Part shown: in pieces, positions 3,919 to 22,187 of the stretch
Layout of the letters: each line of letters starts with the position of its first letter
Position numbering within the stretch: the first letter of the stretch is position 1
Origin: an uncultured Gammaproteobacteria bacterium
GTDB taxonomy: Bacteria; Patescibacteriota; Patescibacteriia; Patescibacteriales; UBA12465
NCBI GenBank assembly: GCA_964567015.1
Contig: CAZMKG010000001.1
Coordinates: 51,488 to 92,275 of the forward strand
Length of the DNA stretch: 40,788 nucleotides
Reading direction: 5' to 3'
Translations under genes and position numbers: made by a program
The notes under the pieces: generated by a model
Told to the model about the DNA's origin: nothing
The model's input: the letters and a program-made list of their open reading frames with translations, nothing else
The model's database searches: none

Positions 3919-3936
3919 TTGGTTAGTTTAAACCGA

Positions 3937-3965
3937 TTGACTGTTTACCGTATATATTATACTAT
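3937..3965 (+). promoter_or_regulatory. candidate promoter for the wHTH-DUF4012 operon
   Basis: TTGACT (3937-3942), 17-nt spacer, TACTAT (3960-3965), 21 nt upstream of the ATG at 3987. Confidence 0.4.
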
Positions 3966-3986
3966 AAATTCATAAATAAAGAAAAT

Positions 3987-4646
3987 ATGCTTAATCTTCT
4001 ATTTGGTTCCGAGGCTAAAATCAAGATTCTTAGCCTTCTTCTCCTCCATCCCGAAAATAGATATGAGATTTCTCAAATGATCCGCGACTTAAAACTGACG
4101 GCTAATTTGGCGCGTCGAGAAATTGATAATTTGGTGGAATTAGGCTTAGTCGATGCTTTAGTGGAGGAAAACCTTTCTGTGGAAGAAAATAACGTCGAAA
4201 ATGATGACGGCGAAAAAAAGAAGAAGGCGGCAAAAAAAGGAAAAAAAGAACCGGTTGAGCCGGAAGAAAAAAAGTTTTTCGGAATAAATAAAAAATTTAT
4301 TCTTTACCCGGAAATTAAAGCCCTTTTCGTCAAAGCTCAGATTTTATCCAGCCAAAAATTTATTTCTGCCCTGGAAAAAAATTTCCAACCGAAATTATTG
4401 CTTTTAACAGGATTTTTTACTAATTATCCGGAGGCGCAGACAGACATCCTGATAGTCGGTTCGATTAAACGTCCCGCTTTTTTGAAACTAATCGCCGAGT
4501 TGGAAAATGACTTGGAAAGAGAGATAAATTTTACTATTCTGGACGAGAAGGAATTTAAATACCGCCAAGAAATAATGGATATTTTCCTTTATAATATCTT
4601 AGAGGGGAAGGCGGTAACTTTAATCGATAATCTTTCCGATAAGTAG
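3987..4646 (+). CDS. winged-helix (ArsR-like) DNA-binding protein with a charged linker and a C-terminal domain of unknown function
   Basis: The N-terminal SEAKIKILSLLLLHPENRYEISQMIRDLKLTANLARREIDNLVELGLV is a wHTH pattern. A Lys/Glu low-complexity linker follows, then a roughly 110-aa C-domain. Confidence 0.55.
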   Translation: MLNLLFGSEAKIKILSLLLLHPENRYEISQMIRDLKLTANLARREIDNLVELGLVDALVEENLSVEENNVENDDGEKKKKAAKKGKKEPVEPEEKKFFGINKKFILYPEIKALFVKAQILSSQKFISALEKNFQPKLLLLTGFFTNYPEAQTDILIVGSIKRPAFLKLIAELENDLEREINFTILDEKEFKYRQEIMDIFLYNILEGKAVTLIDNLSDK

Positions 4647-4647
4647 T

Positions 4648-6525
4648 ATGAAAAATGTGATAATTATTATCTTGAAACTTCTGGCAAAATTATTAAAATA
4701 CGCTCTAATCGCTCTGATCGGGCTTTTTTTTATATTATTGATCCTGCTAGTCAGCACCTATAGAGATTTAAGAATGGCTTATGTATCCGGATTGGAAGGG
4801 AAGGAACGACTAACGCAAGCCGTCGCGCAAGTGAAATTAAGAAATTGGGATGAAGCTTTGGAAAGTTCCCAAGAAGCCGAAGCCGATTTTAATGCCGCTT
4901 TAGCCAGAATTGATTCTACTCATAATAATTTTGCCATAAAGAATTTCCCCCTCCTCCGGAATCAAATCAATGATTTAAGCTATCTTTTTAAAACAACAGA
5001 AATTATCAGCCGCTCTTTAACCAGGTCGATTCCTTTGCTTGGCCAGTTAGATAAAATAAGCAGCGCGTCGGCCGGTGGAAATTTTGCGAATTTAAATGGC
5101 GATGACAAAAATAAATTTTTAAAATTAATTTACGAATCGGAGCCGGAACTCAACGGACTTAAGGCTAATTTAACTTTGGCGCTTTTAAACATTAATAAGA
5201 TACATAAGATTGGCATACTCTGGCCGGTCTATAATCAAATAGGGGAGTATAAAGATCAGCTTCAAGAGGCTGATAAGTTGATTGAAAAATTAAGTCCGCT
5301 CGTAAAGATATTGCCGACTTTAGGCGGGTATCCGACCGAGAAGCATTTTCTTATCCTTCTGCAAAATAACGACGAACTTCGACCGACCGGCGGTTTTATC
5401 GGCGTTTTTGGATTAGCAAACACTAAAAACGGCGAAATTGTCTCTCTAAAGACCGACGACAGCTATCACTTGGATATGCCGGCTGTCGATAAATGGCATA
5501 AAGAGCCGCCGACGCCGATAAAAAAATATCTCGGCGTTGAAAATTGGTATTTGCGCGATGCAAATTGGGTTCCTGATTGGCCGCTGGCCGCGCAAAAAAT
5601 AAATGAAATCTACACCGGAGAAAGTTTGGCAATCGGCCAAAGCGCTCCTGATTTCTCCGGCATAATCGCTATTAATCCTGACTTTATCAGCGACCTTTTA
5701 TCTCTTGTCGGTCCGATAAACATCAAAGGGGAAGAGTATAATTCGCAAAATTTTCAAGAACTTCTGCAATATAACGTGGAAATAGCCTATAAAGATCGGA
5801 ATATTTCTTCTTGGGACAGAAAAGAGATAATCAACGAATTATTGGAAGAATTAAAAGCACGCCTTTTTAGTTTGCCTTCTGATAAATGGATAGAACTGAT
5901 AAACACAACCGGGGATAATATAGCCAGGAAAAACATTCAAATTTATTTTGCCGATAAATCCTTGGAAAATTTGGTTAAAAATTTGGGCGCGAGCGGGGAA
6001 GTTAAAAAAACCGATAGCGATTATTTAATGGTTGTCGACGCTAATTTAGCCGCTTTTAAAAGTGATGCCGTCGTTAAGAAGAAAATTAATTATAGCGTCA
6101 GCGAACGGAATGGACAAACAACAGCTAATTTGACTTTAAATTATCGCCACGAAGGGGATTTCAATTGGCGGACAACGCGTTACCGTAGTTACACTAGAAT
6201 ATATTTACCCTTAGGAAGCCGGTTCATAAATTATTCCGGATTAGATAAAGATAAATCCGATTGGACGGCGATTGACGATCCGATTTTAAACAAAACAATT
6301 TTCGGTTTCTTTTTTACCGTCGAGCCGGGGACTGAAAAAGAAATCTCAATCGATTATTCCTTGCCGGAAGCCATCGCCGGACAAATGGATGACGGGACTT
6401 ATAGTTTAACCGTTCAAAAACAGTCGGGGAGAAGAACCGAAGAATTAAAAGTCAATATCAACCCCGAAGACGGCGGCAAAAAAAATTGGGTAACCGATTT
6501 AGAAACGGACAAATTTTTTAAATAA
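4648..6525 (+). CDS. DUF4012 domain-containing membrane-anchored protein
   Basis: N-terminal TM helix plus the hallmark motif LLQNNDELRPTGGFIGVFG. The start codon abuts the stop of the upstream wHTH gene. Confidence 0.7.
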   Translation: MKNVIIIILKLLAKLLKYALIALIGLFFILLILLVSTYRDLRMAYVSGLEGKERLTQAVAQVKLRNWDEALESSQEAEADFNAALARIDSTHNNFAIKNFPLLRNQINDLSYLFKTTEIISRSLTRSIPLLGQLDKISSASAGGNFANLNGDDKNKFLKLIYESEPELNGLKANLTLALLNINKIHKIGILWPVYNQIGEYKDQLQEADKLIEKLSPLVKILPTLGGYPTEKHFLILLQNNDELRPTGGFIGVFGLANTKNGEIVSLKTDDSYHLDMPAVDKWHKEPPTPIKKYLGVENWYLRDANWVPDWPLAAQKINEIYTGESLAIGQSAPDFSGIIAINPDFISDLLSLVGPINIKGEEYNSQNFQELLQYNVEIAYKDRNISSWDRKEIINELLEELKARLFSLPSDKWIELINTTGDNIARKNIQIYFADKSLENLVKNLGASGEVKKTDSDYLMVVDANLAAFKSDAVVKKKINYSVSERNGQTTANLTLNYRHEGDFNWRTTRYRSYTRIYLPLGSRFINYSGLDKDKSDWTAIDDPILNKTIFGFFFTVEPGTEKEISIDYSLPEAIAGQMDDGTYSLTVQKQSGRRTEELKVNINPEDGGKKNWVTDLETDKFFK

Positions 6526-6546
6526 ATAAAAATTGTCCAAATAAAT

Positions 6547-7845
6547 ATGAATAGCCTGTTTATCTCAATAATCATCTTAATATTTTTAGCCATTATTTTT
6601 CGGCCGGTAATCGGCGTTTATTTGATGGCCGCTTGTTTGCCTATAATCGGACGGGATATTAATCTTGGAGAATTTACCTTGCCGATTTCCGATTTAGTCG
6701 CCCTGCTTACTTTAATCGGCTTCGTCGTCAATTTATTTTGGCGAGCGTTATTTAAACCCAAAGAACGCCTAAAAATAACATGGCCTTTATTTTTCCCGTT
6801 TCTAATGTTCTTTTCAGCCAGTATCTTATCGATTATTTTTTCTCATGATAAAACCGGCTGTTTTTATTATTTTTTACGTTGGCCATTTTTTCTCTATGTG
6901 GCTTATATTTTTATTCCGGCAAACATTATTACCGACGCTAAAACATTAAAAAAGACGGTTGTTATCGTATTTCTAAGCGCCATGGCCGTTTTAGTTTCGG
7001 GGTATTTGTCTTTAATCGGTCAAGATTGGCAAAATAGTTTTTTCCGTTTGAAGTCGGTATATTTTTGGGGCGGGTATCCTTTTGGAGAAAATCACAATCT
7101 GATCGCGGAATTTTTGAATATCGGCGTCTTCTTTGTTTTAGTTATTAAAGAGTTTTTAAAAAGAAAAAAAGAGAGAAGATTGGCGGATATAATATTTTTC
7201 TTGACCGCTCTCGGGATTATCCTGACTTTTTCCCGCGCCGGCTGGATAACTTTATTTTTGCAACTGGGAATATATTTATTTTATCGAACAAAAAATGATA
7301 GCCGGAAGAAATTGTCAATTGCTATTTTCGCTCTTTTAGGCGCGGTTATTATTTCACCGCTACTCTGGAAAATGAGCGTACTTCAAGACAATAATACAAG
7401 TTCAACCGAGAATCGCATCTTGTTGACGGAAATAGCCTGGCAGGCATTTAAAGAAAAGCCGCTCTTTGGCTACGGCAGCGGAGAATTTATTAGCCTGGTC
7501 GGCAATAATATTCGGTTTGTGTCTAAATACGGCGCGCCGATCGATTCGCATGGCGTGCTGCAAAAGGTTATGGCGGAAAACGGCGCTCTTGGTTTGATTA
7601 GTTGGCTTTTTATTTTAGCGTATCTGGTTAGATTTAGCATTTTAGCCATAAAAAAGTATTATCCGAAAGTGCCTTGGGTATTGCCGTTTGCCTTAGCCGC
7701 GCTCGGCGGGATATTTTTTCAATTTTTTAACACCTCGTATTTTAAAGGAAGAGTTTGGTTTCCGCTTAGCCTCTTCTGGCTGGCGATAAAATTTTCCGAA
7801 CAAGTATATGCCGAAAAAAATAAAAATTCTTCACATCCTGCCTAG
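6547..7845 (+). CDS. O-antigen ligase / Wzy-like polytopic membrane protein
   Basis: About 10-12 TM helices. The TFSRAGWITLFLQ motif and a large loop followed by FGYGSGEF are typical of the O-antigen ligase (Wzy_C) family. Confidence 0.7.
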   Translation: MNSLFISIIILIFLAIIFRPVIGVYLMAACLPIIGRDINLGEFTLPISDLVALLTLIGFVVNLFWRALFKPKERLKITWPLFFPFLMFFSASILSIIFSHDKTGCFYYFLRWPFFLYVAYIFIPANIITDAKTLKKTVVIVFLSAMAVLVSGYLSLIGQDWQNSFFRLKSVYFWGGYPFGENHNLIAEFLNIGVFFVLVIKEFLKRKKERRLADIIFFLTALGIILTFSRAGWITLFLQLGIYLFYRTKNDSRKKLSIAIFALLGAVIISPLLWKMSVLQDNNTSSTENRILLTEIAWQAFKEKPLFGYGSGEFISLVGNNIRFVSKYGAPIDSHGVLQKVMAENGALGLISWLFILAYLVRFSILAIKKYYPKVPWVLPFALAALGGIFFQFFNTSYFKGRVWFPLSLFWLAIKFSEQVYAEKNKNSSHPA

Positions 7846-8932
7846 CTTAAGCCGGGGCGGCGCGGAAAAAATTTGCCGCGAACTTTTGCTTAAGATTGAT
7901 TCGGAAAAATTTTCTTCCGCTCTTTTGTTGTTTAAAGATATCGATTTCGATCAAGCGGGAAGAGAAGAATTAATCGCCAATAATATCGAAATAATTTCTT
8001 TGCGAAAAAGATGCCTAATCGATCCGATTAATTTTTGGCAAATACTCAAGACGATAAAAAGGGTTAAACCGGATATTATCCATACCCATTTAGGCGGGGA
8101 TATTTATGGACGTCTGGCCGGCAAACTGGCCGGCGCGCCGATAATTGTATCAACTGAACATAATTTAAATAATAATGAACGCCGCTTGGCCGCAATTGGT
8201 AAAAAGATTACTGCCCGCTATGCGGCTAAAATTTTTGCCGTTTCCGAGGCGGTTAAGAATGACGCCGTTAAACGTTATAATATTCCGCCGGAAAAAATAG
8301 CGGTTATTTATAATGGCGTAGACGCGCTTTATTTTAGACCCGATTATCTTAGAAAAAATAACGAGAAGAATGGTGAAGAAAAAAAAATTATTATCGGCGC
8401 CCTGGGTCGTTTAACGGCGCAAAAGGGATTCGAGACTTTAATTGAAGCGGCTACCAAGATAAAGAATAAAGATTACCTGATAAAAATAGCGGGAATCGGC
8501 GAATCGGAGAACAAATTAAAAGATAAGATTATCGAATTAAATCTTGATAAGCGAGTTAACCTGGTCGGCGCGGTAAACGCTCGCGATTTCTTGGCGGATA
8601 TTGATATTTTTGTTTTTCCTTCGCTTTGGGAAGGATTAGGCTTGGCTGTTTTAGAAGCCGGATCAATGGCAAAACCGATAATCGCTAGCGAGACAGGCGG
8701 TATTAAGGAAATTATAAACGACAACAACGGCTGGCTTTTTCCGGCCGGCGATGCGACCGAACTGGCTGGACGGATAGATTTCGTAATAACTAATTTAAAG
8801 ACCGAAGGAGTAAGAGAGAAAACGGAGAAAATAAAAAAAATAGTCGATAGTCAATTTAGTTTAGATACCATGATCGAAGCTTATGAAGAATGGTACCAGA
8901 TCTTGCAGTTAAAAAATAAAGTAGGAAAATAA
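7808..8932 (+). CDS. glycosyltransferase, GT4 family (GT-B fold)
   Basis: N-terminal KILHILPSLSRGGAEK and C-terminal PSLWEGLGLAVLEAGSMAKPIIASETGGIKEII (E-x7-E signature). It overlaps the upstream gene by 38 nt. Confidence 0.85.
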   Translation: MPKKIKILHILPSLSRGGAEKICRELLLKIDSEKFSSALLLFKDIDFDQAGREELIANNIEIISLRKRCLIDPINFWQILKTIKRVKPDIIHTHLGGDIYGRLAGKLAGAPIIVSTEHNLNNNERRLAAIGKKITARYAAKIFAVSEAVKNDAVKRYNIPPEKIAVIYNGVDALYFRPDYLRKNNEKNGEEKKIIIGALGRLTAQKGFETLIEAATKIKNKDYLIKIAGIGESENKLKDKIIELNLDKRVNLVGAVNARDFLADIDIFVFPSLWEGLGLAVLEAGSMAKPIIASETGGIKEIINDNNGWLFPAGDATELAGRIDFVITNLKTEGVREKTEKIKKIVDSQFSLDTMIEAYEEWYQILQLKNKVGK

Positions 8933-8936
8933 TCAT

Positions 8937-10175
8937 ATGCGTATTCTCCAAGTAAATAAATTTTATTATCCTCGCGGCGGCGCCGACAAATATTTTATAA
9001 ATTTAACGGATGCCTTAAGAAAAGCGGGGAATGAAGTGGCAATTTTTTCTATGGCTCACCCGGAGAATTTGCCTAGTGAATTCAGCGATTATTTCGTTTC
9101 CCGGATTGATTTTAACAATGGTTCCTGGCGCGATAAATTAAAATCTCCGGGACGGATAATCTATAGTTTCGAGGCCAAAAGAAAATTTAAAAAATTAATC
9201 GAAGATTTCCGTCCGGACATAATCCATATTCATAATATTTACCACCAAATATCCCCGTCAATCTTGGCTGTGGCTAAAAAAGCGGGGATTCCGGTCGTCA
9301 TGCATTTGCATGATTATAAGTTGATTTGCCCGAATTACCAATTATTCGCGAATGGAAAAATTTGCGAAGCTTGTAAACCGAAAAAATATTGCCAATGCGC
9401 GAAGAAAAAATGTTTTAAAGAATCATTTGCCCAAAGCCTGCTTGCCTCGCTTGAAATGTTTATTCATCATTCGGTTTTAAAAATATACGAAAAAAATATC
9501 AGTTTTTTTATCGCTCCGAGCGACTTTATGAAAAGAAAAGTTATAGAATTTGGCTGGCCAAAAGATAAGATAGGAGTGGTTATTAATCCTGTTTTTAAAA
9601 CATTTACCGGCGAAGATAACCGGTCGGAAGACAATAGTCAACCGGAAGAAGATTATCTTTTATACTTTGGACGCTTGTCAAAAGAAAAGGGGATTGATGT
9701 TTTAATCAAGGCGGCCGCTTTAACCGGCGTCAAGCTTAAATTTGCCGGCAGCGGTCTCGAAGAAGAGAATCTGAAAGAAGCGGTAAAAGAAGCCGGGGCG
9801 CAAGCCGATTTTTTAGGATTCAAAGATGGCATAGAATTACGCCAAATAATCTTAAAAGCTAAAGCAGTTATAATTCCTTCAATTTGGTATGAAAATATGC
9901 CCCTGAGCCTTCTAGAGGCTCTTAGTTTGGGGAAAATAGTCATTGCTTCTAATATCGGTGGTATCCCGGAAATAATAAAAGACGGAGAAAATGGCTTATT
10001 ATTTAATCCTTGCGATGTTAATGATTTAAAGACTAAAATAACCTTGCTTGATACAATCGACGCGCAAACGAGGCAAATAATTAAGGGAAGAGCGAGGCAA
10101 AGCGTCGCCGGCTTAAATGAAGAAAATAATTTAAAGGAAGTCTTGAAAATCTATCAGGCAATTCTTAAAAAATAA
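8937..10175 (+). CDS. glycosyltransferase, GT4 family
   Basis: RILQVNKFYYPRGGADKY at the N-terminus, and PSIWYENMPLSLLEALSLGKIVIASNIGGIPEIIKDGENG near the C-terminus. Confidence 0.85.
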   Translation: MRILQVNKFYYPRGGADKYFINLTDALRKAGNEVAIFSMAHPENLPSEFSDYFVSRIDFNNGSWRDKLKSPGRIIYSFEAKRKFKKLIEDFRPDIIHIHNIYHQISPSILAVAKKAGIPVVMHLHDYKLICPNYQLFANGKICEACKPKKYCQCAKKKCFKESFAQSLLASLEMFIHHSVLKIYEKNISFFIAPSDFMKRKVIEFGWPKDKIGVVINPVFKTFTGEDNRSEDNSQPEEDYLLYFGRLSKEKGIDVLIKAAALTGVKLKFAGSGLEEENLKEAVKEAGAQADFLGFKDGIELRQIILKAKAVIIPSIWYENMPLSLLEALSLGKIVIASNIGGIPEIIKDGENGLLFNPCDVNDLKTKITLLDTIDAQTRQIIKGRARQSVAGLNEENNLKEVLKIYQAILKK

Positions 10176-10210
10176 AAAAATAACCTCCTAAAACCGGGGG
10201 TTATTTTTTA
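10173..10210. terminator. bidirectional intrinsic terminator
   Basis: ATAACCTCC (10180-10188) pairs with GGGGGTTAT (10196-10204, one G-U pair). It is flanked by an A-run and a T-run and lies between convergent genes. Confidence 0.7.
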
Positions 10211-10227
10211 TATTGGTTATTGAATTA

Positions 10228-11508
10228 TTATTCAACCCGGAAAGCGATACTATAGTTTAACTTTGAATTATTGCCGCTAGCTTTTATATCATAGGCGCCA
10301 TTAGGCATATCAGGCAATTTAATCTTGACCGAGAAGCGGCCGCGATAATCGGTTGGCACGGTTATTAAAGAGCCGCCATTAAAATTAATATTTACCGTTT
10401 CTTCGGGAAGGAAACCGCCGCCGGATACTAGAATATCGGAACCGGAAGGCGCCGTATTTTTATCGAGATTTAAGAATAAATTTTCTAGAGAATAGGCTTC
10501 CGCTTCCGCAGTAGCGGTAACCGAAGCGATTTTATCAAGCTTATCGTTTAAAATTAAAATATTGGAATTATTAAAAACAATAATCTTGTCACCCTGGTTA
10601 TAAACAACTTTAAGGCCCATGGCCCAGCCGGCATATCCGCCCATATTTCCGGTCCAAGCGTAATCTTTTAATTTCATCTCCTTATCAAGTTTAACGACTC
10701 CGACGCCATTGGAAAAATAAACATATTCGGTATTTCCGCTCGCTGCCATATCAAATCCCTGATAATCAAGATGCTTAAAAGAAGCCAATAAATTTCCGGC
10801 TGAATCGAATTTTTTGGCCGCATAGTCATCGATAGCATAAATATAGCCATCAGCGTCTTGATAAGCGCGGCGATTTCCTTTTTCATACTTAAAATCAAGC
10901 GGCGCTTCGCCGGCAAGGGAAGTTGTCTTTAAATTATATATTTTTAAAGCGCTTTCTGACTCGTCAACGCTTAATATAAATTTTTGATTATCGCCGCTAA
11001 TATTATATGGGGCGGCGGCATTCTTAAAATCATAAGAAACAATCGATTCTAAATCGGTATTGAACAGTTTTGTTCCTTTGGCGCTGATAGTCGCCAAGTT
11101 ATTGCCGATTTTATCGATTCGATTATACCATTCCCAAAAAGAATTGGTTGTCTTTTTTACAAGGTTTAAATCGGCGCCGACAAGTTCGTATTTATAAATC
11201 GTATAGTTACTGACCGCATAGACGTATAAATGGCTATTTTCTTCGGAAAATTTTGCGTCGAAGAATTTTCCGTAGGAATTAAAAAGGGAATCGTAGGGAC
11301 GAATTTTTGTTAGTAAACCTAATTTTTGGTCTTCTAATTTGAAAATTTCAAGACTTCCGGTATTGGTCGTTAAGACATAAACGCTTTCCCGGTATGATAT
11401 TGCGTCCCCGGAATAATAAGATTGAGTGCTGCTTTCGCCTGATTTTGCGATAAAGAGGATAAAAATCAAGGAAGTTAGCGCCACTGAAAATATTGCTAAT
11501 TTTTTCAT
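10228..11508 (-). CDS. secreted protein with beta-propeller-like repeats and a C-terminal Ig-like domain
   Basis: Signal peptide MKKLAIFSVALTSLIFILFIAKS. Repeats include SVYVLTTNTGSLEIFKL, HLYVYAVSNYTIYKYEL, GYIYAIDDYAAKKFD, EYVYFSNGVGVVKLD and DKIIVFNNSNILILND. The C-terminal beta-sandwich-like segment reads SDILVSGGGFLPEETVNINF...YDIKASG. Confidence 0.5.
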   Translation of the reverse strand: MKKLAIFSVALTSLIFILFIAKSGESSTQSYYSGDAISYRESVYVLTTNTGSLEIFKLEDQKLGLLTKIRPYDSLFNSYGKFFDAKFSEENSHLYVYAVSNYTIYKYELVGADLNLVKKTTNSFWEWYNRIDKIGNNLATISAKGTKLFNTDLESIVSYDFKNAAAPYNISGDNQKFILSVDESESALKIYNLKTTSLAGEAPLDFKYEKGNRRAYQDADGYIYAIDDYAAKKFDSAGNLLASFKHLDYQGFDMAASGNTEYVYFSNGVGVVKLDKEMKLKDYAWTGNMGGYAGWAMGLKVVYNQGDKIIVFNNSNILILNDKLDKIASVTATAEAEAYSLENLFLNLDKNTAPSGSDILVSGGGFLPEETVNINFNGGSLITVPTDYRGRFSVKIKLPDMPNGAYDIKASGNNSKLNYSIAFRVE

Positions 11509-11548
11509 ATATTTTTTAGTTTTAGATAATTTTGCATTATATTAATAA

Positions 11549-11592
11549 ATTTGTCAATCGCCGTTGACAAATAAAAATAATTGTAGTATAAA
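11549..11592 (+). promoter_or_regulatory. promoter for the Wzz-like gene, embedded in a 9-6-9 inverted repeat
   Basis: TTGACA (11564-11569), 17-nt spacer, TATAAA (11587-11592). ATTTGTCAA (11549-11557) and TTGACAAAT (11564-11572) are exact reverse complements separated by TCGCCG. Confidence 0.6.
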
Positions 11593-11628
11593 TGGAGGAT
11601 GAAAAAATAATAAAGACAATAAGAATAT

Positions 11629-12417
11629 ATGGAATTTCATGAGTTTTTAAGCTTAATAAGAAGAAAGAGACAAACAATTTTTGTTATAATATTGACCGGG
11701 ATTATACTGACTGCGGTTTTTTCCTTGGCGCAAACCATGAAATATAGCGTCCATTCTCGTCTCTTAGTCGTCCAAAATTCAATCGGAGACGACACTTATG
11801 CTTTGTCAAAATCAAATGAATATTTAGGCAACCTTTTCGCGGAAATTATCCATTCCAGCTCATTTTACGATCAAGTCCTGATCTCTAATTTTGGCATTGA
11901 TCGAAGCTATTTCGACGGAACTTATAGCCAGCAAGTTAAGAAATGGCGCAAAACCGTTGAAACAAAAACCCAAAGCAATACCGGTATTATCGATATCAGC
12001 GTCTACCATCCAAATGTCCAAGAAGCTCGAAAAATAGCTTTGGCTATTAACAATATCTTAATTAGCAGTAATCAAAACTATCAAGGCGGGCAAAATGTTA
12101 GAATAAACATTATCGATCAGCCGCTTTCGTCTGTTTATCCGACCAAACCCGATTTGCTTTTTAATCTTTCGGCTGCCACTTTAATATCTCTTTTCCTTGC
12201 CCTGTTTTATATTTATGTTTTTCCGGAGGAAGAATATGATATTCGTCTTTTGGGAAAGAAAAAAAAGAAGATAAAAACATTAAAAAACCAACCGGTCGAA
12301 CCGTTAAAATACGAGACTATAAACAGGGAAACACCGGAAATAGAAACAACTGAAATAGAAACGCCGGAAGAGCGCGCGCCCTTAAATGGAAATATCAGAA
12401 ATATCATTGGGCGATAA
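11629..12417 (+). CDS. Wzz-like chain-length determinant / polysaccharide co-polymerase-like protein
   Basis: N-terminal LSLIRRKRQTIFVIILTGIILTAVFSLAQTMKYSVHSRLLV (basic stretch, TM helix, then a Y-x-hydrophobic run), a second TM near the C-terminus (LSAATLISLFLALFYIYVF), and an acidic Thr/Glu/Pro tail. Confidence 0.55.
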   Translation: MEFHEFLSLIRRKRQTIFVIILTGIILTAVFSLAQTMKYSVHSRLLVVQNSIGDDTYALSKSNEYLGNLFAEIIHSSSFYDQVLISNFGIDRSYFDGTYSQQVKKWRKTVETKTQSNTGIIDISVYHPNVQEARKIALAINNILISSNQNYQGGQNVRINIIDQPLSSVYPTKPDLLFNLSAATLISLFLALFYIYVFPEEEYDIRLLGKKKKKIKTLKNQPVEPLKYETINRETPEIETTEIETPEERAPLNGNIRNIIGR

Positions 12418-12431
12418 TAAAAAAATAATTA

Positions 12432-12460
12432 TTGACAGATATAAGGAAAACAGTCATAAT
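12432..12460 (+). promoter_or_regulatory. promoter of the two-gene barrel cassette
   Basis: TTGACA (12432-12437), 17-nt spacer, CATAAT (12455-12460). Confidence 0.6.
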
Positions 12461-12534
12461 TAGATGAAAAACTTTTTATGAGTTTTTTGAAAAAGAACAT
12501 TAATAATTGAATAATAAAATATAGAAATGAAGAG

Positions 12535-13446
12535 ATGAAGAAAAAAATTGTCTTTTTCTGGGTGATGTTTTTGACTGCGGTTTATGCTTATGGTCAAACT
12601 GAAAACATTCAGCCCCTTGTAGAATTTCGTGGGACAACAATGATTTCTGTTTTTGCCGGTGGTTATACCGCCCAAAAAAACGGAAACAACCAAGGAAATT
12701 GGTATGGGATGTATTTAGAACATTTGCCGGTTCGTTTTTTGTTTTCTGAATATAAGCATTTGAATCTTGGGCTTTCAGCCTTAGCTTCCAGAAGCTCATA
12801 TGAAGGAAACGATAAAACCAGTAAAAGTTCTAATACAAATTACGAATTTGGACTTGGTTTTGGCGGTGGTTTCTATAACTACCACTTTTCCAAAAATTCC
12901 GCTCTTTATCTTGGCGCTAATTCTTTAATAAAGAATGGTCAAGAAATTGTAACAGGAACAAATTCGTCAAGCTCCGGACGATATTTAGCTAATGAGTATT
13001 ATCTGATGTGGTCTTCTGAACTAAATTTAAACGTCATGAAGACGTATGAATCCGGTTTGAGAGGCTTGCCGCGAACGCAATTGCGGCTTATCTATCAGAG
13101 ACCACTCAAAACAAATCGCGACGCTTATTGGAACACTGCTCCGCTGTCAGAATCCTCTACGTGGGATAAGACAGCTTATATGAGTGAACTAAAAGTAAGC
13201 ATGTATCGTTTCGGTGAAAATTTATTTCTCGAACCAAAAGTTGTTGCCGCTTATCATTATTATGAAGGCGATGACAGCCAATGGCTAATCGGAGGAGTTG
13301 AATTTTCATTACGAAAATTGAATTGGGATGATTTCTTATCTCTTTCGTTTTCAGTGAAAAAACAGATTGGGAATTACATCCCGAATCTGAATGACGCCCA
13401 ATTTACTTTGGGACTAAACTTTATGCCTTTTAATTTTAAAAGGTAA
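12535..13446 (+). CDS. secreted protein predicted to be an outer-membrane-type beta-barrel (about 12 amphipathic strands)
   Basis: Signal peptide MKKKIVFFWVMFLTAVYAYG/QTEN. Repeated alternating hydrophobic/polar segments include NYEFGLGFGGGFYNYHF, YYLMWSSELNLNV, YMSELKVSMYRF, WLIGGVEFSLRK, LSLSFSVKKQI and QFTLGLNFMPFNF. The C-terminus is aromatic-rich. I recognise no family. Confidence 0.45.
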   Translation: MKKKIVFFWVMFLTAVYAYGQTENIQPLVEFRGTTMISVFAGGYTAQKNGNNQGNWYGMYLEHLPVRFLFSEYKHLNLGLSALASRSSYEGNDKTSKSSNTNYEFGLGFGGGFYNYHFSKNSALYLGANSLIKNGQEIVTGTNSSSSGRYLANEYYLMWSSELNLNVMKTYESGLRGLPRTQLRLIYQRPLKTNRDAYWNTAPLSESSTWDKTAYMSELKVSMYRFGENLFLEPKVVAAYHYYEGDDSQWLIGGVEFSLRKLNWDDFLSLSFSVKKQIGNYIPNLNDAQFTLGLNFMPFNFKR

Positions 13447-13490
13447 GAATGATGAAATAGTTGTAATTGTATAATTTAAAAAAATTTAAG

Positions 13491-14276
13491 ATGAGTCAGA
13501 AGTTCTGGTATTTCGTGTCACCTATTGCTGGCGCAATTATTGTTTTACTTGTATTGGTTATATGTGGTTTTGATTTTAAGTCTAAATCATGGCCACAAGT
13601 AGAACCGATAGCAGGAGTAAATCCTGTTGTGGTTGAAGATATAGATTCGGTAAATATCGCTTTGGGCGATAGTATCGTTTCTTTAAATGAAGAAAACGGG
13701 GCCTTAGAAGACAGTATTGTCGTTTTAAAGGACGTTATTGTTAAGCTAAATACGGCATTAGATAAATGCAGTAGCAGTAAAAAAACTGCTGCTAAGGCTA
13801 AACCGGTAACATCCTCTCAGGAACCACTTCAGAAAGTTGTTGTCGAGGTGGTGGTAAAAAATCCTGAAATAGCAGAAGTTGTTGCTGAAGCCCCCAAAAA
13901 GGTGGTGAGTCAACCAACTAAAGCTGTTGTTGAAACTCCGGCTATTGAGGAAAAAGTTATTGCTTGCTTCCGCACAAATGGAAGTAAAGACCAATATTTT
14001 CCTCATTACGCGATTGATCGCGGCGCGACTGTCAGTAATGCCAAGGACAATCGCAAATTAGGGTATAATTATATCCTTAATCCGGTCGAATCAATCTCCG
14101 GGAGTGTGCCTGGTATTACAAAGGAAGGCGTCTTTTTCGTTCCCGTATCTTACTTGAAAAAGTATCTCAATATGTCAGGGGAATCTCTGAAATATGTTGA
14201 TTTACTTTATGAGGAAAACTGGGATGGAGTACGCATGACTCTCCAAGGAGAGTACTACGTATATCATTCTAGGTAA
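13491..14276 (+). CDS. membrane-anchored protein: N-terminal TM, short coiled-coil repeat, Pro/Val/Lys/Glu-rich spacer, globular C-domain (TonB/TolA-like layout)
   Basis: The ORF-track start at 13467 is a TTG, so I prefer the ATG at 13491 (MSQKFWYFVSPIAGAIIVLLVLVICGF). A DSIVSLNEENGALEDSIVVLKDVIVKLN repeat is followed by the spacer AKPVTSSQEPLQKVVVEVVVKNPEIAEVVAEAPKKVVSQPTKAVVETPAIEEKV and then an unrecognised domain of about 110 aa. Confidence 0.5.
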   Translation: MSQKFWYFVSPIAGAIIVLLVLVICGFDFKSKSWPQVEPIAGVNPVVVEDIDSVNIALGDSIVSLNEENGALEDSIVVLKDVIVKLNTALDKCSSSKKTAAKAKPVTSSQEPLQKVVVEVVVKNPEIAEVVAEAPKKVVSQPTKAVVETPAIEEKVIACFRTNGSKDQYFPHYAIDRGATVSNAKDNRKLGYNYILNPVESISGSVPGITKEGVFFVPVSYLKKYLNMSGESLKYVDLLYEENWDGVRMTLQGEYYVYHSR

Positions 14277-14299
14277 AAGTGAAAATTAGTTTAATTTAG

Positions 14300-14339
14300 C
14301 CCTCAGGACACATCGTTGTTCTGGGGGTTTTATTTTTTC
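14300..14339 (+). terminator. intrinsic terminator closing the cassette
   Basis: CCCTCAGGAC (14300-14309) pairs with GTTCTGGGGG (14318-14327, two G-U pairs), followed by TTTTATTTTTTC. Confidence 0.7.
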
Positions 14340-14371
14340 TTGACAAATATTTATAAATATCCCATTACCTA

Positions 14372-14400
14372 TTGACAAATTATAAAAATATTTTTATAAT
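14372..14400 (+). promoter_or_regulatory. consensus sigma70 promoter for GT4 plus the lipoprotein gene
   Basis: TTGACA (14372-14377), 17-nt spacer, TATAAT (14395-14400). A second TTGACAAAT lies at 14340-14348 with a poorer -10. Confidence 0.7.
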
Positions 14401-14420
14401 ATCTTATTACATCATCGAAT

Positions 14421-15506
14421 ATGACCATCGCTTTTATTGGGCAAAAGGGAATTCCCGCCAAAAATGGCGGAGTTGATCGCCACGTCGAAAACCTGGCGAG
14501 ATTTTTGGCTGTAAAAGGAGAAAAAGTTATTGTTTATAATCGTAAAAATTATTTGGAAAATAACATTACGGAGTGGAAAGGGGTTAAATTAGTTTATCTT
14601 CCGTTTATCGATTGCCAAAATTTAGCGGCGATAACTCATGGATTTTTAGCGACTATCGACGCTATTAAGCGCAAGGTCGATGTTATTCATTATCATGGAA
14701 TCGGGCCGTCTCTTTTAGCTTGGATACCGCGCGTTTTCGCGCCAAAAATAAAAGTGGTCGCTACTTTGCATAGTTTTGATTATGGTAATGACAAATGGAG
14801 CGGTTTTGCTAAATTAATGCTTAAACTCGGCGAAGTCAGCATGTGTCGCTTTGCGCATGAAATTATTGTTTTAACAGAAACGATGCGTGATTATTTATTA
14901 CAAAGACATGGACGCGAAAGTCATGTTATTCCTAATGGCGCCTATATCAATATTAATCACGGAACAAACAAACTTAACGATTTTGGTTTAAAAAGCGGAA
15001 AATATATTTTAAGTGTTTCCCGTCTTATCCGATTAAAAGGCCTTCAATATTTAATTCCGGCTTTTAAAGAAATTAAAAGTGATGAAAAATTAGTGATTGT
15101 CGGCGACGGTGATTATCTTCCGGAACTTAAAAAATTAGCCGCTGGCGATCAGCGAATTATTTTTACCGGCAACCAAACAGATGAAACTTTAGACCAGCTT
15201 TATACCAATGCTAAATTATTTATTCAATCATCAGAAATGGAAGGATTGTCTATCTCTTTATTAGAAGCGATGGCCTATGGCCTACCGTGTTTAGTAAGTG
15301 AAATTATCGCCAATCAGCAAGCAGCCGGAGAAACGGCGATTTATTTTACTTCCAAGGATATTAAAGATTTAGAAAAAAAATTAAATTATTGTTTAACCAA
15401 CCCGGAAAGAATGGCAGAAATCGGACGAGCCGGAGAAGAAAGGGCAAAAAATATTTTTAATTGGGAAAAAATTTCCGCCGACACTTTAGCAATTTATAAA
15501 AAATAA
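14421..15506 (+). CDS. glycosyltransferase, GT4 family
   Basis: IAFIGQKGIPAKNGGVDRHVENLA at the N-terminus, and QSSEMEGLSISLLEAMAYGLPCLVSEI (E-x7-E) in the C-domain. Confidence 0.85.
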   Translation: MTIAFIGQKGIPAKNGGVDRHVENLARFLAVKGEKVIVYNRKNYLENNITEWKGVKLVYLPFIDCQNLAAITHGFLATIDAIKRKVDVIHYHGIGPSLLAWIPRVFAPKIKVVATLHSFDYGNDKWSGFAKLMLKLGEVSMCRFAHEIIVLTETMRDYLLQRHGRESHVIPNGAYININHGTNKLNDFGLKSGKYILSVSRLIRLKGLQYLIPAFKEIKSDEKLVIVGDGDYLPELKKLAAGDQRIIFTGNQTDETLDQLYTNAKLFIQSSEMEGLSISLLEAMAYGLPCLVSEIIANQQAAGETAIYFTSKDIKDLEKKLNYCLTNPERMAEIGRAGEERAKNIFNWEKISADTLAIYKK

Positions 15507-15573
15507 TATAAATTAATTAATCAAAATAGTTCTTCACAATTAAATAAAATAAAGCAACAAAAAAATATAAGAA

Positions 15574-16101
15574 ATGAAAACAAAAATTTTTTGTATCATT
15601 TTCGCCAGCCTGTTATTAACGGGTTGCGAATATGTGGAGTATGCAGGGTTAGATCCTGATACACCAATAACACCGTCAGAACAAGGAGATACTATGGTTC
15701 TGAAAGAGCCGGTAGTAGCCTTTGCTGGTTCTGCGCCTGATGGCGCTTATACTGTACTTATTCTCTTCGCAAAAGAGAGACTAAGAGATATAACTGACAC
15801 AGTTATTTATTTCAATGGCAATGTCTCAAACTGGGAAAAGAAAATTATCCCAGCAAGCGACAAAAACTATGTCATTGATAATGGTCAGCCAAAAAAAGTC
15901 GCCAAAGACGGCTTATATATTGGGGCTAAATTTGTCCTGAAAGATAAGGGTTTGTATAATATTGCCCTTGTCCACTCAGGTAATAATTGGACGGATTTGT
16001 CCGGCTCCAGATTTATCCGTCATGACAATCCTGGATTAGTCTGGTTTGATTTCAATAACGGAGAAATAGCTTCAAGTGGCGATCAAATAGCCACTAAGTA
16101 A
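15574..16101 (+). CDS. small lipoprotein of unknown function (beta-rich)
   Basis: Lipobox LLLTG/C in MKTKIFCIIFASLLLTGCEY. The mature part is about 155 aa with no recognisable family. Confidence 0.6.
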   Translation: MKTKIFCIIFASLLLTGCEYVEYAGLDPDTPITPSEQGDTMVLKEPVVAFAGSAPDGAYTVLILFAKERLRDITDTVIYFNGNVSNWEKKIIPASDKNYVIDNGQPKKVAKDGLYIGAKFVLKDKGLYNIALVHSGNNWTDLSGSRFIRHDNPGLVWFDFNNGEIASSGDQIATK

Positions 16102-16106
16102 ATTAC

Positions 16107-16140
16107 AAAAGCCGCACCCTTACAGGAGCGGCTTTTAAAA
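16107..16140. terminator. bidirectional intrinsic terminator
   Basis: AAAAGCCGC (16107-16115) pairs with GCGGCTTTT (16129-16137), with inner CCT/AGG pairs. It lies between the convergent lipoprotein and corA genes. Confidence 0.75.
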
Positions 16141-16143
16141 TTT

Positions 16144-17109
16144 TTAACGCAACCACTTTTTTCTTTCAAAAATAAATAACATTATCGAGGAAGCAAATGT
16201 CATTAAGCCGATTATAATCCAAAAACCTGAGGGGCGATCAACAAACGGCATGTAGTTCGCATTCATGCCAAAAATTCCGGCCAATAAGCTTAGAGGGAAA
16301 ACAATAACGGAAAAGATGGTTAATGTTTTCATGATATTGGTCATACGATTATTTAAAAGAGACTCATTTGTATTATTTAAAACTTCAATCATTTCCTTTT
16401 GGTTATCGAGCGTTTCCCAAATACGTTTAGTGTGTTCGACTAGGCCGGCATAGTATTTTTTAATCGCCGGCTTTTCGACCAAGCTACTTTCCATAACCGT
16501 CAATTGCTGAAGAATGTTTTTATGATTTTGCATTATCTTGCGAATATTAATAATATTTCGCCGATTGGTTAAAATTCTAGTAACGGCATCTTTTTGGTTG
16601 CCGGAAAAAATTAAATCTTCAATTTCATTTAGATTAACACTATTATTGTCTAGAATCTGAAAACAACCGTCTAGCAGATGGCCTAAGATTTCATAGAGTA
16701 AGATAGCGGAAGATTCAAGAAAAAAAGAAACAAGGGAATCCGGACTTTTTTTTCCTAAATCAAAAAATTGCTTTAGCGCTTTAAGATTATTGCCGCTAGT
16801 GGAAATAAGAAAACCGTGACCGATAAAAAAATCTATTTCCCCGGAAACAATTTTATCATCCTTTAAAACAGGAAAATGCAGAACCAGAAAAAGATAATCC
16901 GGCCCTCTAAATATCTGTGGGCGTTGAAAGGAAACGGAGGCGGCGGAAGCTTTTAAATGAACCAGATTAAAATTATAATTTTTTCTTAAATAATCAATTT
17001 CATTTTTTCCGACATTTATAATATTAACCCACTTTAATTTTCCTTCGGTCCGTGGATTGTCGATAGTTAGTTCCTCGATTCGATCAGTTATTCTTTTATA
17101 ATTGGACAT
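16144..17109 (-). CDS. corA: CorA-family magnesium/cobalt transporter
   Basis: Two C-terminal TM helices carry the GMN motif (LLAGIFGMNANYMPF). The ORF-track start at 17118 is a TTG, so the ATG at 17109 (MSNYKR) is preferred. Confidence 0.85.
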   Translation of the reverse strand: MSNYKRITDRIEELTIDNPRTEGKLKWVNIINVGKNEIDYLRKNYNFNLVHLKASAASVSFQRPQIFRGPDYLFLVLHFPVLKDDKIVSGEIDFFIGHGFLISTSGNNLKALKQFFDLGKKSPDSLVSFFLESSAILLYEILGHLLDGCFQILDNNSVNLNEIEDLIFSGNQKDAVTRILTNRRNIINIRKIMQNHKNILQQLTVMESSLVEKPAIKKYYAGLVEHTKRIWETLDNQKEMIEVLNNTNESLLNNRMTNIMKTLTIFSVIVFPLSLLAGIFGMNANYMPFVDRPSGFWIIIGLMTFASSIMLFIFERKKWLR

Positions 17110-17201
17110 AAAAAACAAAAGTTTATTTTATTAAAATTTTCTTAAAATCTTTGACGAAAACCTTATTTTATAATAAGATTAAGATGTTGATATTATAACA
17201 T

Positions 17202-18419
17202 ATGGTCAATATTTTGGGAATAAATTTAAGCGGATTAAGCCAATCAGAGGTCTTAAAAAAGATCACTGATTTTTTAAATAGCGGCGAATCGCATTATGTC
17301 GTTACCCCGAATCCGGAAATTATTCTAGCCGCCGGGAAAGACGAAGAGCTTTTCTATATTTTAAATGAAGCCGATCTATCCCTGGCTGATGGTTTCGGTT
17401 TAAAAATGGCCGGTTGGTTGTTTGGTGTTAATATACCGCGTGTTACCGGTTCGGATACAACCGTTGAACTTCTAAAAATCGCCGCCGAAAAAGGGAATAG
17501 AGTAATGATTTTAAATTGGGAAAACGGACTTTCGCAATCTAATGATATTAAAACTGCTTTAGACAAGAAATTCCCCGGTTTGATTTTTTCTGTTTTAGAT
17601 ATTAGCCGCGATAAATTTTTATCAAACGAAAACGTAGAAAAAATAAATCAATTTGCGCCGGAAATTTTGTTCAACACTCTTGGCTCTCCGTATCAGGAAA
17701 AATTAATGTATCATAATATAAAAAAATTGCCTTCCGTCAGAGTTGCGCTAGGAATCGGCGGATCGTTTGATTTTATCACCGGCAAAGCCAAGCGCGCGCC
17801 GAAGATATTTCGCTCTTTGGGTTTAGAATGGTTTTGGCGTTTATTAATTTCTTTTTTTGGAAAAAATCCCGGTAAAAGAATAAAACGAGTATATCAAGCG
17901 ACTTTTGTTTTTATCGGCCGAGTGCTCCTGGGGCGTTTCTTTTATCCATTTTTTTATCGTAAAAACGTCGCTTGTTTTCTTTATAAAAAAAATGGGGGGG
18001 AATTCGAGGTTTTAGTGGTAGAGAGAGCGGATCATCCCGGACATTGGCAGTTGCCGCAAGGAGGGACTGACGGCGAACCACTGGATGTTGCCGGAGCGCG
18101 GGAATTGCGCGAAGAATTAGGAACTGATAAAATTACTATTCGTGCGGCTTTTAAAAATGTTTACCGCTATAAATTTTCCGATAGGGATAAGTATGCTGCC
18201 ATTAATTCACGCCACCTCGCTTTTAATCATAAAGGCCAAAGCCAGGGACTTTTAATTGCCGAGTTTACTGGCAGCGACAGCGATATAAAAATAAATTTCT
18301 GGGATCATCGGAACTGGAAGTGGGTTGAAATTGATCAATTAGTTGACACCGTGCATGAATTTAGAAAAGAAGGCTGCAAAAAATTCTTAGTAAAATTTAA
18401 ATCATTAAATCTTAATTAA
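17202..18419 (+). CDS. fusion protein: WecG/TagA/CpsF-type glycosyltransferase (GT26) plus a C-terminal NUDIX hydrolase domain
   Basis: Residues 1 to about 235 carry ILGINLSGLS, HYVVTPNPEIILAA, LSLADGFGLKMAGW and LEWFWRL, all GT26 hallmarks. Residues from about 250 to 405 carry the Nudix-box-like GGTDGEPLDVAGARELREELG. It is one uninterrupted ORF. Confidence 0.7.
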   Translation: MVNILGINLSGLSQSEVLKKITDFLNSGESHYVVTPNPEIILAAGKDEELFYILNEADLSLADGFGLKMAGWLFGVNIPRVTGSDTTVELLKIAAEKGNRVMILNWENGLSQSNDIKTALDKKFPGLIFSVLDISRDKFLSNENVEKINQFAPEILFNTLGSPYQEKLMYHNIKKLPSVRVALGIGGSFDFITGKAKRAPKIFRSLGLEWFWRLLISFFGKNPGKRIKRVYQATFVFIGRVLLGRFFYPFFYRKNVACFLYKKNGGEFEVLVVERADHPGHWQLPQGGTDGEPLDVAGARELREELGTDKITIRAAFKNVYRYKFSDRDKYAAINSRHLAFNHKGQSQGLLIAEFTGSDSDIKINFWDHRNWKWVEIDQLVDTVHEFRKEGCKKFLVKFKSLNLN

Positions 18420-20957: not shown

Positions 20958-22187
20958 ATGAGAAATAGAATTATAAAATCAGTAATTATTTTCTTTATCC
21001 TTTCCGGCTTTTTAGGTGCGGCTCCTTTTGTTTTTAGTCAAACAGGGAATATAGATGCGGAAATAAACGATCTTAATCTAAAAATTCAAAATCAGAAAAA
21101 ACAAATAGAAACCCTTAAGGCAAAACAGAAAGAATACCAAGCTCAAATAGACGCCAAACGCCGCGATCGCGTGAGTTTAAACAACCAATTGGCTATAATC
21201 GAGGACCGTTTGGCTCAAGCCCAGCTCGATATCGACGGCGTGAATTTAGAAATAGATAAAACTAATTTGGAAATACAAAAAACTGAAATAGACAGCGCCA
21301 ATCTTGATGCCAAGATAGAGGAGAAGAAGCAGCACATCGCCAACTTATTGCGTCTTGTTTATAAGCAAGACCAGATGACGACGCTTGAAATGCTTTTGCT
21401 TAACGGATCTTTATCCGATTTTCTAAATCAAGCCAAATATCTCGAGGACACGAATAATGAAATAGGGAAAAGCGTCGAGGATTTGCGGGCCGATAAAGAA
21501 CGTCTTGATGGCAACAAAGAAACTTTAAACGGAAAAAGCGCCAAATTAATAGCTTTAAAAGAACAACTTAAAGAAAAGGAAGGCGCTCTTTCTTATGAAC
21601 AAGAAAGTAAAACTTATATCCTGGAAGAAACAAAATCTTCGGAAAAACAATATCAAGCCTTATTGGCTAAAGCTAAAAAAGAACAGGATCAAGCGGCCGC
21701 GGAAATATCCAGCGCCGAAAACCAGATTAGGAAAAAGATGTCGCAGAAAGATAAACAGAGGCTTGATGGTGGTAATAATACGATTGCTTGGCCAGTCCCT
21801 AAAAATATAATAACCACCTCTTTCCATGATCCTGATTATCCGTATCGCAATATAATCGGCGAACACTCGGCAGTCGATATTAGAGCCGCGCAGGGAACAA
21901 CTATCGATGCCGCGGCTGATGGTTATGTCGCTAAAGTAAAATTTAATGGCGATAAAAGCTATGCTTATATCATGCTTATTCACGGAGACGGTTTAGCGAC
22001 TGTTTATGGTCATGTTTCGGCTGTTTATGTCACAACCGATCAATATGTTGTTCAGGGGCAGGCTATCGGCCGTACCGGAGGAACACCGGGGACAATCGGT
22101 GCCGGATCAACCACTACCGGACCGCATCTCCACTTTGAAGTTAGAAAGAATGGTCTACCGGTAAATCCGGAAAACTATCTCCCTTAA
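20958..22187 (+). CDS. M23 family metallopeptidase with an N-terminal coiled coil (EnvC-like layout)
   Basis: Signal/anchor sequence, about 250 aa of heptad-rich Q/K/E sequence, then HSAVDIRAAQGTTIDAAADGYV and GPHLHFEVRKNGLPVNP. Confidence 0.85.
   Translation: MRNRIIKSVIIFFILSGFLGAAPFVFSQTGNIDAEINDLNLKIQNQKKQIETLKAKQKEYQAQIDAKRRDRVSLNNQLAIIEDRLAQAQLDIDGVNLEIDKTNLEIQKTEIDSANLDAKIEEKKQHIANLLRLVYKQDQMTTLEMLLLNGSLSDFLNQAKYLEDTNNEIGKSVEDLRADKERLDGNKETLNGKSAKLIALKEQLKEKEGALSYEQESKTYILEETKSSEKQYQALLAKAKKEQDQAAAEISSAENQIRKKMSQKDKQRLDGGNNTIAWPVPKNIITTSFHDPDYPYRNIIGEHSAVDIRAAQGTTIDAAADGYVAKVKFNGDKSYAYIMLIHGDGLATVYGHVSAVYVTTDQYVVQGQAIGRTGGTPGTIGAGSTTTGPHLHFEVRKNGLPVNPENYLP

Follow-up and report, generated by a model that had tools for sequence, protein, structure and literature searches.

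Predicted outer-membrane-type β-barrel and stalked, membrane-anchored partner encoded in a conserved surface-glycan locus of Patescibacteria

The β-barrel proteins associated with Wzy loci of Gram-negative bacteria include those of the PCP-OPX-β-barrel translocons (Myxococcus; PCP, polysaccharide co-polymerase) and Wzi (E. coli group 1 capsules), and synthase systems include PelB and AlgE. Barrels for polysaccharide export in Gram-negative bacteria have 16-18 strands and reside in a true outer membrane. In mycobacteria, a lineage not known to have the β-barrel assembly machinery (BAM), MspA forms a β-barrel pore in a mycomembrane that is built on wall-linked glycan. In Thermotoga, a barrel and a long coiled-coil spacer hold an outer layer (the toga) that consists of barrel trimers and is mostly protein, with small lipid patches only. 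In some species the spacer Ompalpha is encoded with the barrel Ompbeta in one operon, and Thermotogae encode BamA (PMC10160955). Patescibacteria, in contrast, are described as having no outer membrane (PMC12102498, PMC12857230, PMC10160955). Here we report on two adjacent genes in a 40,788-nucleotide stretch of contig CAZMKG010000001.1 (assembly GCA_964567015.1), referred to below as the window. Gene 1 encodes a secreted protein that is predicted with good confidence to be a β-barrel of the outer-membrane type, and gene 2 encodes a partner with a predicted membrane anchor and stalk. Comparison with related genomes indicates that the pair has long belonged to the surface-glycan machinery of this clade of Patescibacteria and has been passed on vertically.

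The locus resembles those for polysaccharide export in that the barrel gene adjoins a co-polymerase gene, a Wzy_C-family polymerase/ligase-like protein and GT4 glycosyltransferases are present, and the listed fold matches of gene 1 include PelBC and AlgE, two polysaccharide exporters. Unlike PCP-OPX systems, gene 2 has no Poly_export domain and the co-polymerase is of the Gram-positive CpsC type. The encoding of a barrel together with a coiled-coil spacer, here a predicted one, is shared with Ompalpha/Ompbeta of some Thermotoga species; SlpA/OmpM is a further system in which such proteins cooperate in tethering an outer layer. However, gene 2 differs from Ompalpha and SlpA in having no SLH domain, in its predicted anchoring in the cytoplasmic membrane rather than in peptidoglycan, and in its much shorter stalk. 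Porins of the MspA type exemplify barrels housed in an additional hydrophobic layer without known BAM, but MspA is an octameric composite barrel with no sequence relation to gene 1, and we saw no evidence of a mycolate-like lipid pathway. Novelty lies not in the fold class but in the family, the partner and, above all, the cellular setting.

Gene 1 is an ATG-initiated open reading frame (ORF) encoding 303 amino acids (coordinates are window positions; Table 1). It has a predicted Sec signal peptide, MKKKIVFFWVMFLTAVYAYG, followed by Gln, and a comparable hydrophobic leader is found in most of the 63 family members. Gln occupies position +1 of the predicted cleavage site in 62/62 aligned members (Gly20-Gln21 in the window protein, positions 12592-12597), and the residue before it is Ala in 38, Gly in 22 and Ser in 2. 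A Gln at this position resembles the 'Q-rule' of pyroglutamate N-termini in Bacteroidota. An M23 peptidase encoded elsewhere in the window (20958-22187) may share the feature (...VFS/QTGN, the slash marking the cleavage site).

In the AlphaFold2 model of gene 1, built on an alignment of 16 sequences, residues 2-19 form the helix of the signal peptide. Then come 12 strands, each 9-24 residues long, with several 2-residue connections on one side and long hairpins on the other. Mean pLDDT is 83.4 and pTM 0.77, and all five models have a pLDDT of 80-83. The mature protein comprises ~283 amino acids, and strand 1 begins ~13 residues past the cleavage site. A signal peptide and about 12 strand-like segments had been proposed in an earlier sequence-only reading of this DNA, and both are reproduced by the model. 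Foldseek returned 149 matches in the PDB at E <= 0.001, and the 50 listed are all outer-membrane barrels. The best of those listed are 12-stranded autotransporter β-domains (E 7e-9 to 1e-6, TM-score ~0.5-0.59, identity 9-13%; e.g., Hbp, E 7e-9, and BrkA, TM-score 0.59, rmsd 6.3 A); PelBC, AlgE, OmpG and FadL are also among them. In the BFVD viral structure library, the top named matches are likewise outer-membrane barrels. A phage origin for gene 1 was considered and rejected, as the viral fold library gave generic outer-membrane barrels only.

Gene 1 has no match in Pfam or NCBIfam. When the 63 family members were scanned one by one against Pfam (24,736 models), 9 of the 13 weak matches fell on outer-membrane barrel families (Autotransporter 6, OMP_b-brl 2, PagL 1). 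By this tally the share is far above chance, because such families are a small fraction of Pfam models. When the PDB was searched with a profile of the 63 members, no match reached significance (PorV E 0.43, EspP E 1.2). The β-domains of autotransporters (Hbp, AIDA-I, NalP, EspP, BrkA; PF03797) are the best structural match and have strand number and size (~280 amino acids) in common with gene 1. Six of the 63 relatives have sub-threshold matches to PF03797 (best E 4.7e-4) and gene 1 itself has none. Unlike autotransporters, gene 1 has neither a passenger domain nor a pore-filling helix, and its organism has no known outer membrane. Given the missing passenger domain and PF03797 matches below the gathering score, identification of gene 1 as an autotransporter was rejected.

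Each predicted strand has one more hydrophobic face. The polar face is the better conserved of the two (mean frequency of the commonest residue 0.73 vs 0.60, p = 9e-5) and carries 29 of the 38 invariant residues within strands, including Glu and Lys positions. On the lumen face of the predicted barrel, invariant Glu and Lys residues form a ladder (E218, K220, E233, K235, E256, K275). This pattern fits a membrane barrel with a functional lumen; in a soluble β-sandwich built around a hydrophobic core, the hydrophobic face would be expected to be the conserved one. Cys is absent from the protein, and Gly, Asn, Ser and Tyr are abundant. Outer-membrane proteins often end in an aromatic residue. Such a residue is C-terminal in 21/63 members (13 Phe, 5 Tyr, 3 Trp) and lies within the last four positions in 37/63; the window protein ends in FMPFNFKR.

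It is conceivable that the barrel model is an artefact of a shallow alignment, and that gene 1 is instead a soluble or wall-associated β-rich protein of the glycan pathway. The small number of sequences used for modeling, a whole-sequence period-2 hydrophobicity that is not significant, and the lack of any curated family above threshold would all be in keeping with this. We consider it quite unlikely, given the agreement of the five models, the confinement of the listed PDB matches and top named viral matches to outer-membrane barrels, the clustering of weak Pfam matches on the same families, the conservation of the polar rather than the hydrophobic face, and the composition and aromatic termini just described. 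The sequence-only reading had suggested an outer-membrane-type barrel from alternating hydrophobic and polar segments. The barrel itself holds up as a prediction; the alternation, taken over the whole sequence, is not above chance. We call gene 1 a barrel because of the structure prediction, the fold matches and the asymmetry of conservation, and not because of that pattern.

Gene 2 begins 44 nt after gene 1 on the same strand and encodes 261 amino acids counted from its ATG. There is an in-frame TTG upstream, at 13467; close homologues begin at the ATG instead. In the AlphaFold2 model a transmembrane (TM) helix (residues 5-24) is followed by helices at 52-66 and 72-95, which are of low confidence. 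The predicted coiled coil covers residues ~52-95, and residues ~96-150 are predicted to be disordered and are rich in Val, Lys, Glu, Pro and Ala. The β-rich C-terminal domain (150-261; pLDDT 71-92 per 10-residue block) is the sole confident part of the model and includes the most conserved motif of the protein, CFRxNGSxDxHFPHYAxDRGA. From residue counts, we estimate a possible reach of very roughly 10-25 nm for the coiled coil together with the 55-residue linker in extended form. No Pfam match was found at E <= 1 in any of 13 members, a profile search of the PDB gave no sequence match, and there was no fold match (best Foldseek E 0.76). By these searches, the C-terminal domain is one without a known fold or family, and the earlier view that neither protein belongs to a recognized family agrees with the Pfam results for both. 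Also lacking in Pfam searches are an SLH or other wall-binding domain; the predicted anchor is the TM helix.

Some relatives encode a shorter, second gene 2 paralogue between the co-polymerase and barrel genes; there is none in the window. In the paralogue ORFs of 167-176 amino acids (L017 9198-9728, L004 9317-9820), a TM helix and a Pro/Ala linker accompany a C-terminal domain with a match to the profile of gene 2 (E 4e-8 and 8e-7, respectively). In L017, the main gene 2 homologue starts with a lipoprotein-like signal (...FLYSC).

The C-terminal domains of TonB and TolA contact outer-membrane proteins, and a protein of this type in gene 2 could act as an energy transducer that drives transport through the barrel. 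The layout is indeed the same: an N-terminal TM anchor, a charged, Pro-containing spacer and a C-terminal domain of ~110 residues. However, what is shared with TonB and TolA is the plan only. None of the 13 members has a TonB_C or TolA match at E <= 1, there is no fold match, and the conserved Ser/His motif of the TM helix is missing, Gly14 being the only invariant residue there. No ExbB/ExbD/TolQ/TolR-like or other MotA/ExbB-family gene was identified in the window. A plug or TonB-box region is likewise lacking in the barrel, since only ~13 residues of mature gene 1 precede strand 1. TonB/TolA homology was rejected by the Pfam, PDB-sequence and fold searches, and the transducer reading, which these comparisons contradict at the level of homology, is highly improbable. 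Of the TonB/TolA-like architecture suggested from the sequence, the layout stands and the kinship does not.

The sequence-only reading had also assigned the pair its own promoter and terminator, and both are present and conserved in relatives. Sites resembling promoters are not, as a class, enriched in this AT-rich region (19 vs 14.4 +/- 4.4 in shuffles), so comparative conservation is the decisive evidence for the promoter of gene 1. Its hexamers and their spacing are kept in relatives L007, L001 and L008, the barrel proteins of which are 67-88% identical to gene 1, whereas the flanking intergenic sequence diverges. The terminator hairpin is maintained via compensatory substitutions in L001, L003 and L008. 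The GT4 gene downstream has a perfect promoter of its own (TTGACA-N17-TATAAT, 14372-14400), 33 nt past the terminator and conserved in the same three relatives. Because of the conserved promoter, the compensated hairpin and the separate GT4 promoter, gene 1 and gene 2 are taken, on comparative evidence, to be a discrete transcription unit. A second TTGACA occurs at 14341-14346, between the terminator and the GT4 promoter. A regulatory RNA in the 75-nt leader was considered and rejected, as Rfam had no matches anywhere in the window. No tRNAs were found in the window.

In a scan of GTDB with one genome per species, relatives of gene 1 were identified in 22 species. Gene 2 directly follows gene 1 in 19 of the 22 loci, and in the remaining 3 the contig ends first, a co-occurrence that the sequence-only reading had called for. 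The order co-polymerase, barrel, partner, GT4 is found in ~20 species of Falkowbacteria/Patescibacteria. In GTDB loci of sufficient length and in metagenome contigs, the common order is DUF4012, Wzy_C, GT4, GT4, a 426-residue secreted protein (opposite strand), co-polymerase, barrel, partner, GT4, lipoprotein, CorA, WecG/TagA-NUDIX and GluRS. The gene 1 family comprises 15 clusters in an index of 5.8 billion proteins, to which a repeat search with a broad alignment added just two more proteins, and a profile search found 69 representative clusters among 1.84 billion proteins; gene 2 forms 12 clusters. The most distant members that were looked up (profile E 1e-10 to 3e-4) are likewise in a surface-glycan locus, where they adjoin a co-polymerase-like gene and a gene for a TM-linker-domain protein. 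Several of these proteins match the gene 2 profile. In the L032 lineage, a Wzy_C gene and a GT4 gene lie between the co-polymerase and the barrel, which is still within the locus. Among the members examined, none was found outside a surface-glycan locus. The pair is a fixed part of this conserved locus, which is flanked by housekeeping genes, rather than the self-contained cassette that had been envisaged.

Where their labels are informative, the relatives are assigned to Candidatus Falkowbacteria or to the Patescibacteria group, and among them is a closed chromosome of 977 kb (CP066698.1). Several contigs (L007, L011, L013-L015, L018, L020, L024, L028) are labelled 'uncultured Gammaproteobacteria', and L010 is labelled 'Marivirga sp.' Gene order in these contigs is that of the other Patescibacteria loci, and such housekeeping genes as they contain are 64-87% identical to those of the window. 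The labels look wrong and may be placeholders or reflect mis-binning. GC content is flat across the region (0.34-0.40). Logan assemblies made independently from two different sequencing runs align colinearly with the window at 99.8% identity (7491-18229 and 11950-15071), and they span both junctions of the two-gene unit.

The labels, and the +1 Gln that recalls secreted proteins of Bacteroidota, might suggest foreign or misassembled DNA, in which case the contig would belong to a diderm bacterium or be chimeric, or a diderm host would have donated the region recently. Given the Patescibacteria synteny of the oddly labelled contigs, the closed Falkowbacteria chromosome and a barrel family with no homologue seen outside the locus among 1.84 billion representative proteins, this explanation is contradicted and scarcely credible. 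Comparison indicates that the window is Patescibacteria DNA. Because of the flat GC and the nearly identical independent assemblies across the junctions, a chimera or recent insertion is considered excluded and the DNA native. The synteny near GluRS, CorA and WecG led us to reject a mobile cassette as well. In the sequence-only reading an assembly chimera had been doubted, correctly by this evidence, and acquisition from a diderm host had been entertained; the flat composition and fixed locus speak against the latter.

Table 1. Positions of the gene pair, its signals and other features in the window
Feature	Position	Strand	Evidence or description
Gene 1, secreted protein, predicted 12-stranded outer-membrane-type β-barrel, new family	12535-13446	+	AlphaFold2, Foldseek
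Gene 1 signal peptide, MKKKIVFFWVMFLTAVYAYG	12535-12594	+	Predicted cleavage before Gln21; AlphaFold2 helix at residues 2-19
Gene 2, predicted bitopic membrane protein, directly downstream of the barrel gene	13491-14276	+	AlphaFold2
Putative sigma-70-type promoter of gene 1	12432-12460	+	TTGACA-N17-CATAAT, 11/12 consensus positions
Putative intrinsic terminator closing the two-gene unit	14298-14339	+	13-pair hairpin (14298-14329), then T-run
Wzz/CpsC-type polysaccharide co-polymerase	11629-12417	+	Pfam Wzz E 4.3e-6; TIGR01006 (CpsC family) E 1.1e-10, below cut-off
Surface-glycan locus, conserved	4648-18419		DUF4012, Wzy_C, three GT4, 426-residue secreted protein, PCP, barrel, partner, lipoprotein, CorA, WecG/TagA-NUDIX (Pfam)
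Secreted protein of 426 residues	10228-11508	-	Weak Ig-like 'PGS' match at C-terminus (NF058592 E 4.6e-7, below cut-off)
Lipoprotein, 175 residues	15574-16101		Lipobox LLTGC
WecG/TagA-type glycosyltransferase fused to NUDIX hydrolase domain	17202-18419		
Trio of genes	1618-6525		766-residue protein without Pfam match (minus strand), 219-residue protein with weak HTH-regulator matches, 625-residue DUF4012 protein
VirD4/TrwB-like type IV coupling protein, 829 residues	31748-34237	-	TrwB_AAD_bind, TraG-D_C

The 426-residue secreted protein, which has no annotation beyond the weak match in Table 1, occurs at the corresponding place in every related locus that extends that far (51-82% identity) and probably belongs to the envelope module as well. 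At the position of the lipoprotein, relatives encode a protein of 381 amino acids, and the window ORF aligns to its middle part only; the short form is also present in an independent assembly (L040, 99.8% identical). The WecG/TagA-NUDIX fusion is kept in L001, L004 and L035, and the NUDIX domain is absent in others (L032). Two distant relatives, L032 and L034, also have the trio (1618-6525) upstream of their glycan locus, and L037 has part of it. The rest of the window includes genes for ribosomal proteins, four aminoacyl-tRNA synthetases, DnaX, CTP synthase, alanine racemase and a POTRA protein of the FtsQ type.

The VirD4/TrwB-like coupling protein is consistent with the reported prevalence of type IV secretion systems in Patescibacteria (PMC12102498), and would fit the idea that the barrel is a weapon or docking device that an episymbiont inserts into the outer membrane of a diderm host, with gene 2 presenting or delivering it. 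Those Patescibacteria that have been cultivated are described as epibionts of bacterial hosts (PMC12857230), and the producer itself has no recognized outer membrane to house a barrel (PMC12102498). However, the pair lies among housekeeping and envelope-biosynthesis genes, as a single copy at a fixed position in the contigs examined, and its lumen is strongly conserved. No toxin, adhesin or secretion-system gene adjoins it. Single-chain barrels of this type, moreover, enter membranes from the periplasmic side and are not known to do so from outside. A pore delivered into a host membrane had been among the explanations offered for this DNA, and nothing in our analysis supports it; we regard it as improbable.

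We propose instead, tentatively, that the barrel, the stalked partner and the co-polymerase form a native envelope module that exports or anchors a Wzy-made surface glycan, an explanation that is plausible but falls somewhat short of probable. In this reading the pair is an envelope operon that is native to Falkowbacteria-type Patescibacteria and inherited vertically. Gene 1 would be exported by the Sec pathway, cleaved before the invariant Gln and folded as a 12-stranded barrel, the outside of which is variable and more hydrophobic and the lumen conserved and charged. Gene 2 would be anchored in the cytoplasmic membrane by its single N-terminal helix and would extend its coiled-coil stalk, linker of ~55 residues and globular head away from the cell. 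We infer that the barrel lies in a hydrophobic outer envelope layer, either lipid-containing or largely proteinaceous, that it is assembled there without a known BAM machine, and that gene 2 reaches it from the cytoplasmic membrane. Together with the CpsC-type co-polymerase, the two proteins could then form the distal part of the route for the glycan, as exit pore or as anchor. Thermotoga, where an operon encodes a barrel and its coiled-coil tether and the outer layer is poor in lipid, offers a precedent (PMC10160955).

Several observations weigh against this proposal. Outer-membrane biogenesis genes are missing from the window, in which no BAM, Lpt or Lol gene was identified. Pfam searches found no OPX (Poly_export, PES) domain in gene 2 or its neighbours. 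The 12 predicted strands are fewer than the 16-18 of the polysaccharide export barrels known to us. The whole-sequence period-2 hydrophobicity power reaches only z = 0.7 for gene 1 and z = 1.5-1.9 for family profiles, in a test that is weak even for real outer-membrane proteins (positive controls: OmpX z = 1.9 and OmpA barrel z = 3.1). The outward face of the strands is only ~63% hydrophobic or Gly, probably because the strands reach well beyond any membrane.

A close rival is a structural role without a specific link to glycan export, in which gene 1 is an abundant structural or porin barrel of a toga-like or S-layer-like sheath and gene 2 ties it to the cytoplasmic membrane, by analogy with Ompalpha/Ompbeta or SlpA/OmpM. 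The near-consensus promoter and strong terminator would, we suggest, fit the high expression expected of such a protein, and the invariant Glu/Lys ladder could close the lumen rather than open a pore. The barrel and coiled-coil operon of Thermotoga is a precedent (PMC10160955). On the other hand, the pair is always inside a Wzy/PCP/GT4 locus and beside the co-polymerase, even in the most distant members, which speaks for a functional link to the glycan, and Pfam searches found no SLH or other wall-binding domain in gene 2. Taken by itself, we consider the sheath unlikely.

Both the glycan-export proposal and the sheath bear on how the envelope of these bacteria is viewed. An evolutionary scheme scores Patescibacteria as having lost the outer membrane, and for this group alone the loss annotation is not based on cryo-electron tomography, as the group is uncultured (PMC10160955, legend). 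Barrel proteins, a tether and BamA are the genomic hallmarks used to predict a second membrane (PMC10160955). Our literature search, of incomplete coverage, turned up no description of barrel or porin proteins from Patescibacteria. An unrecognized outer layer may be present in these cells. The more specific possibility, which we hold to be doubtful, is that the envelope of Falkowbacteria and their relatives includes a second, outer layer with barrels, which was either retained from a diderm ancestor or invented independently in the manner of the toga or mycomembrane. It would be built around a lineage-specific barrel of the outer-membrane type, held from the cytoplasmic membrane by a novel stalked partner, and assembled without canonical BAM.

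The conservation of such a predicted barrel and its stalked partner in a core envelope locus provides a concrete handle on the assumption that Patescibacteria are monoderm. If the barrel is not embedded in a membrane, the case is a warning against inferring envelope type from predicted folds. If it truly resides in an outer layer, the finding would bear on the loss and gain of outer membranes, on the question of whether barrel assembly can dispense with BAM, and on the way in which tiny episymbionts present their surface glycans.

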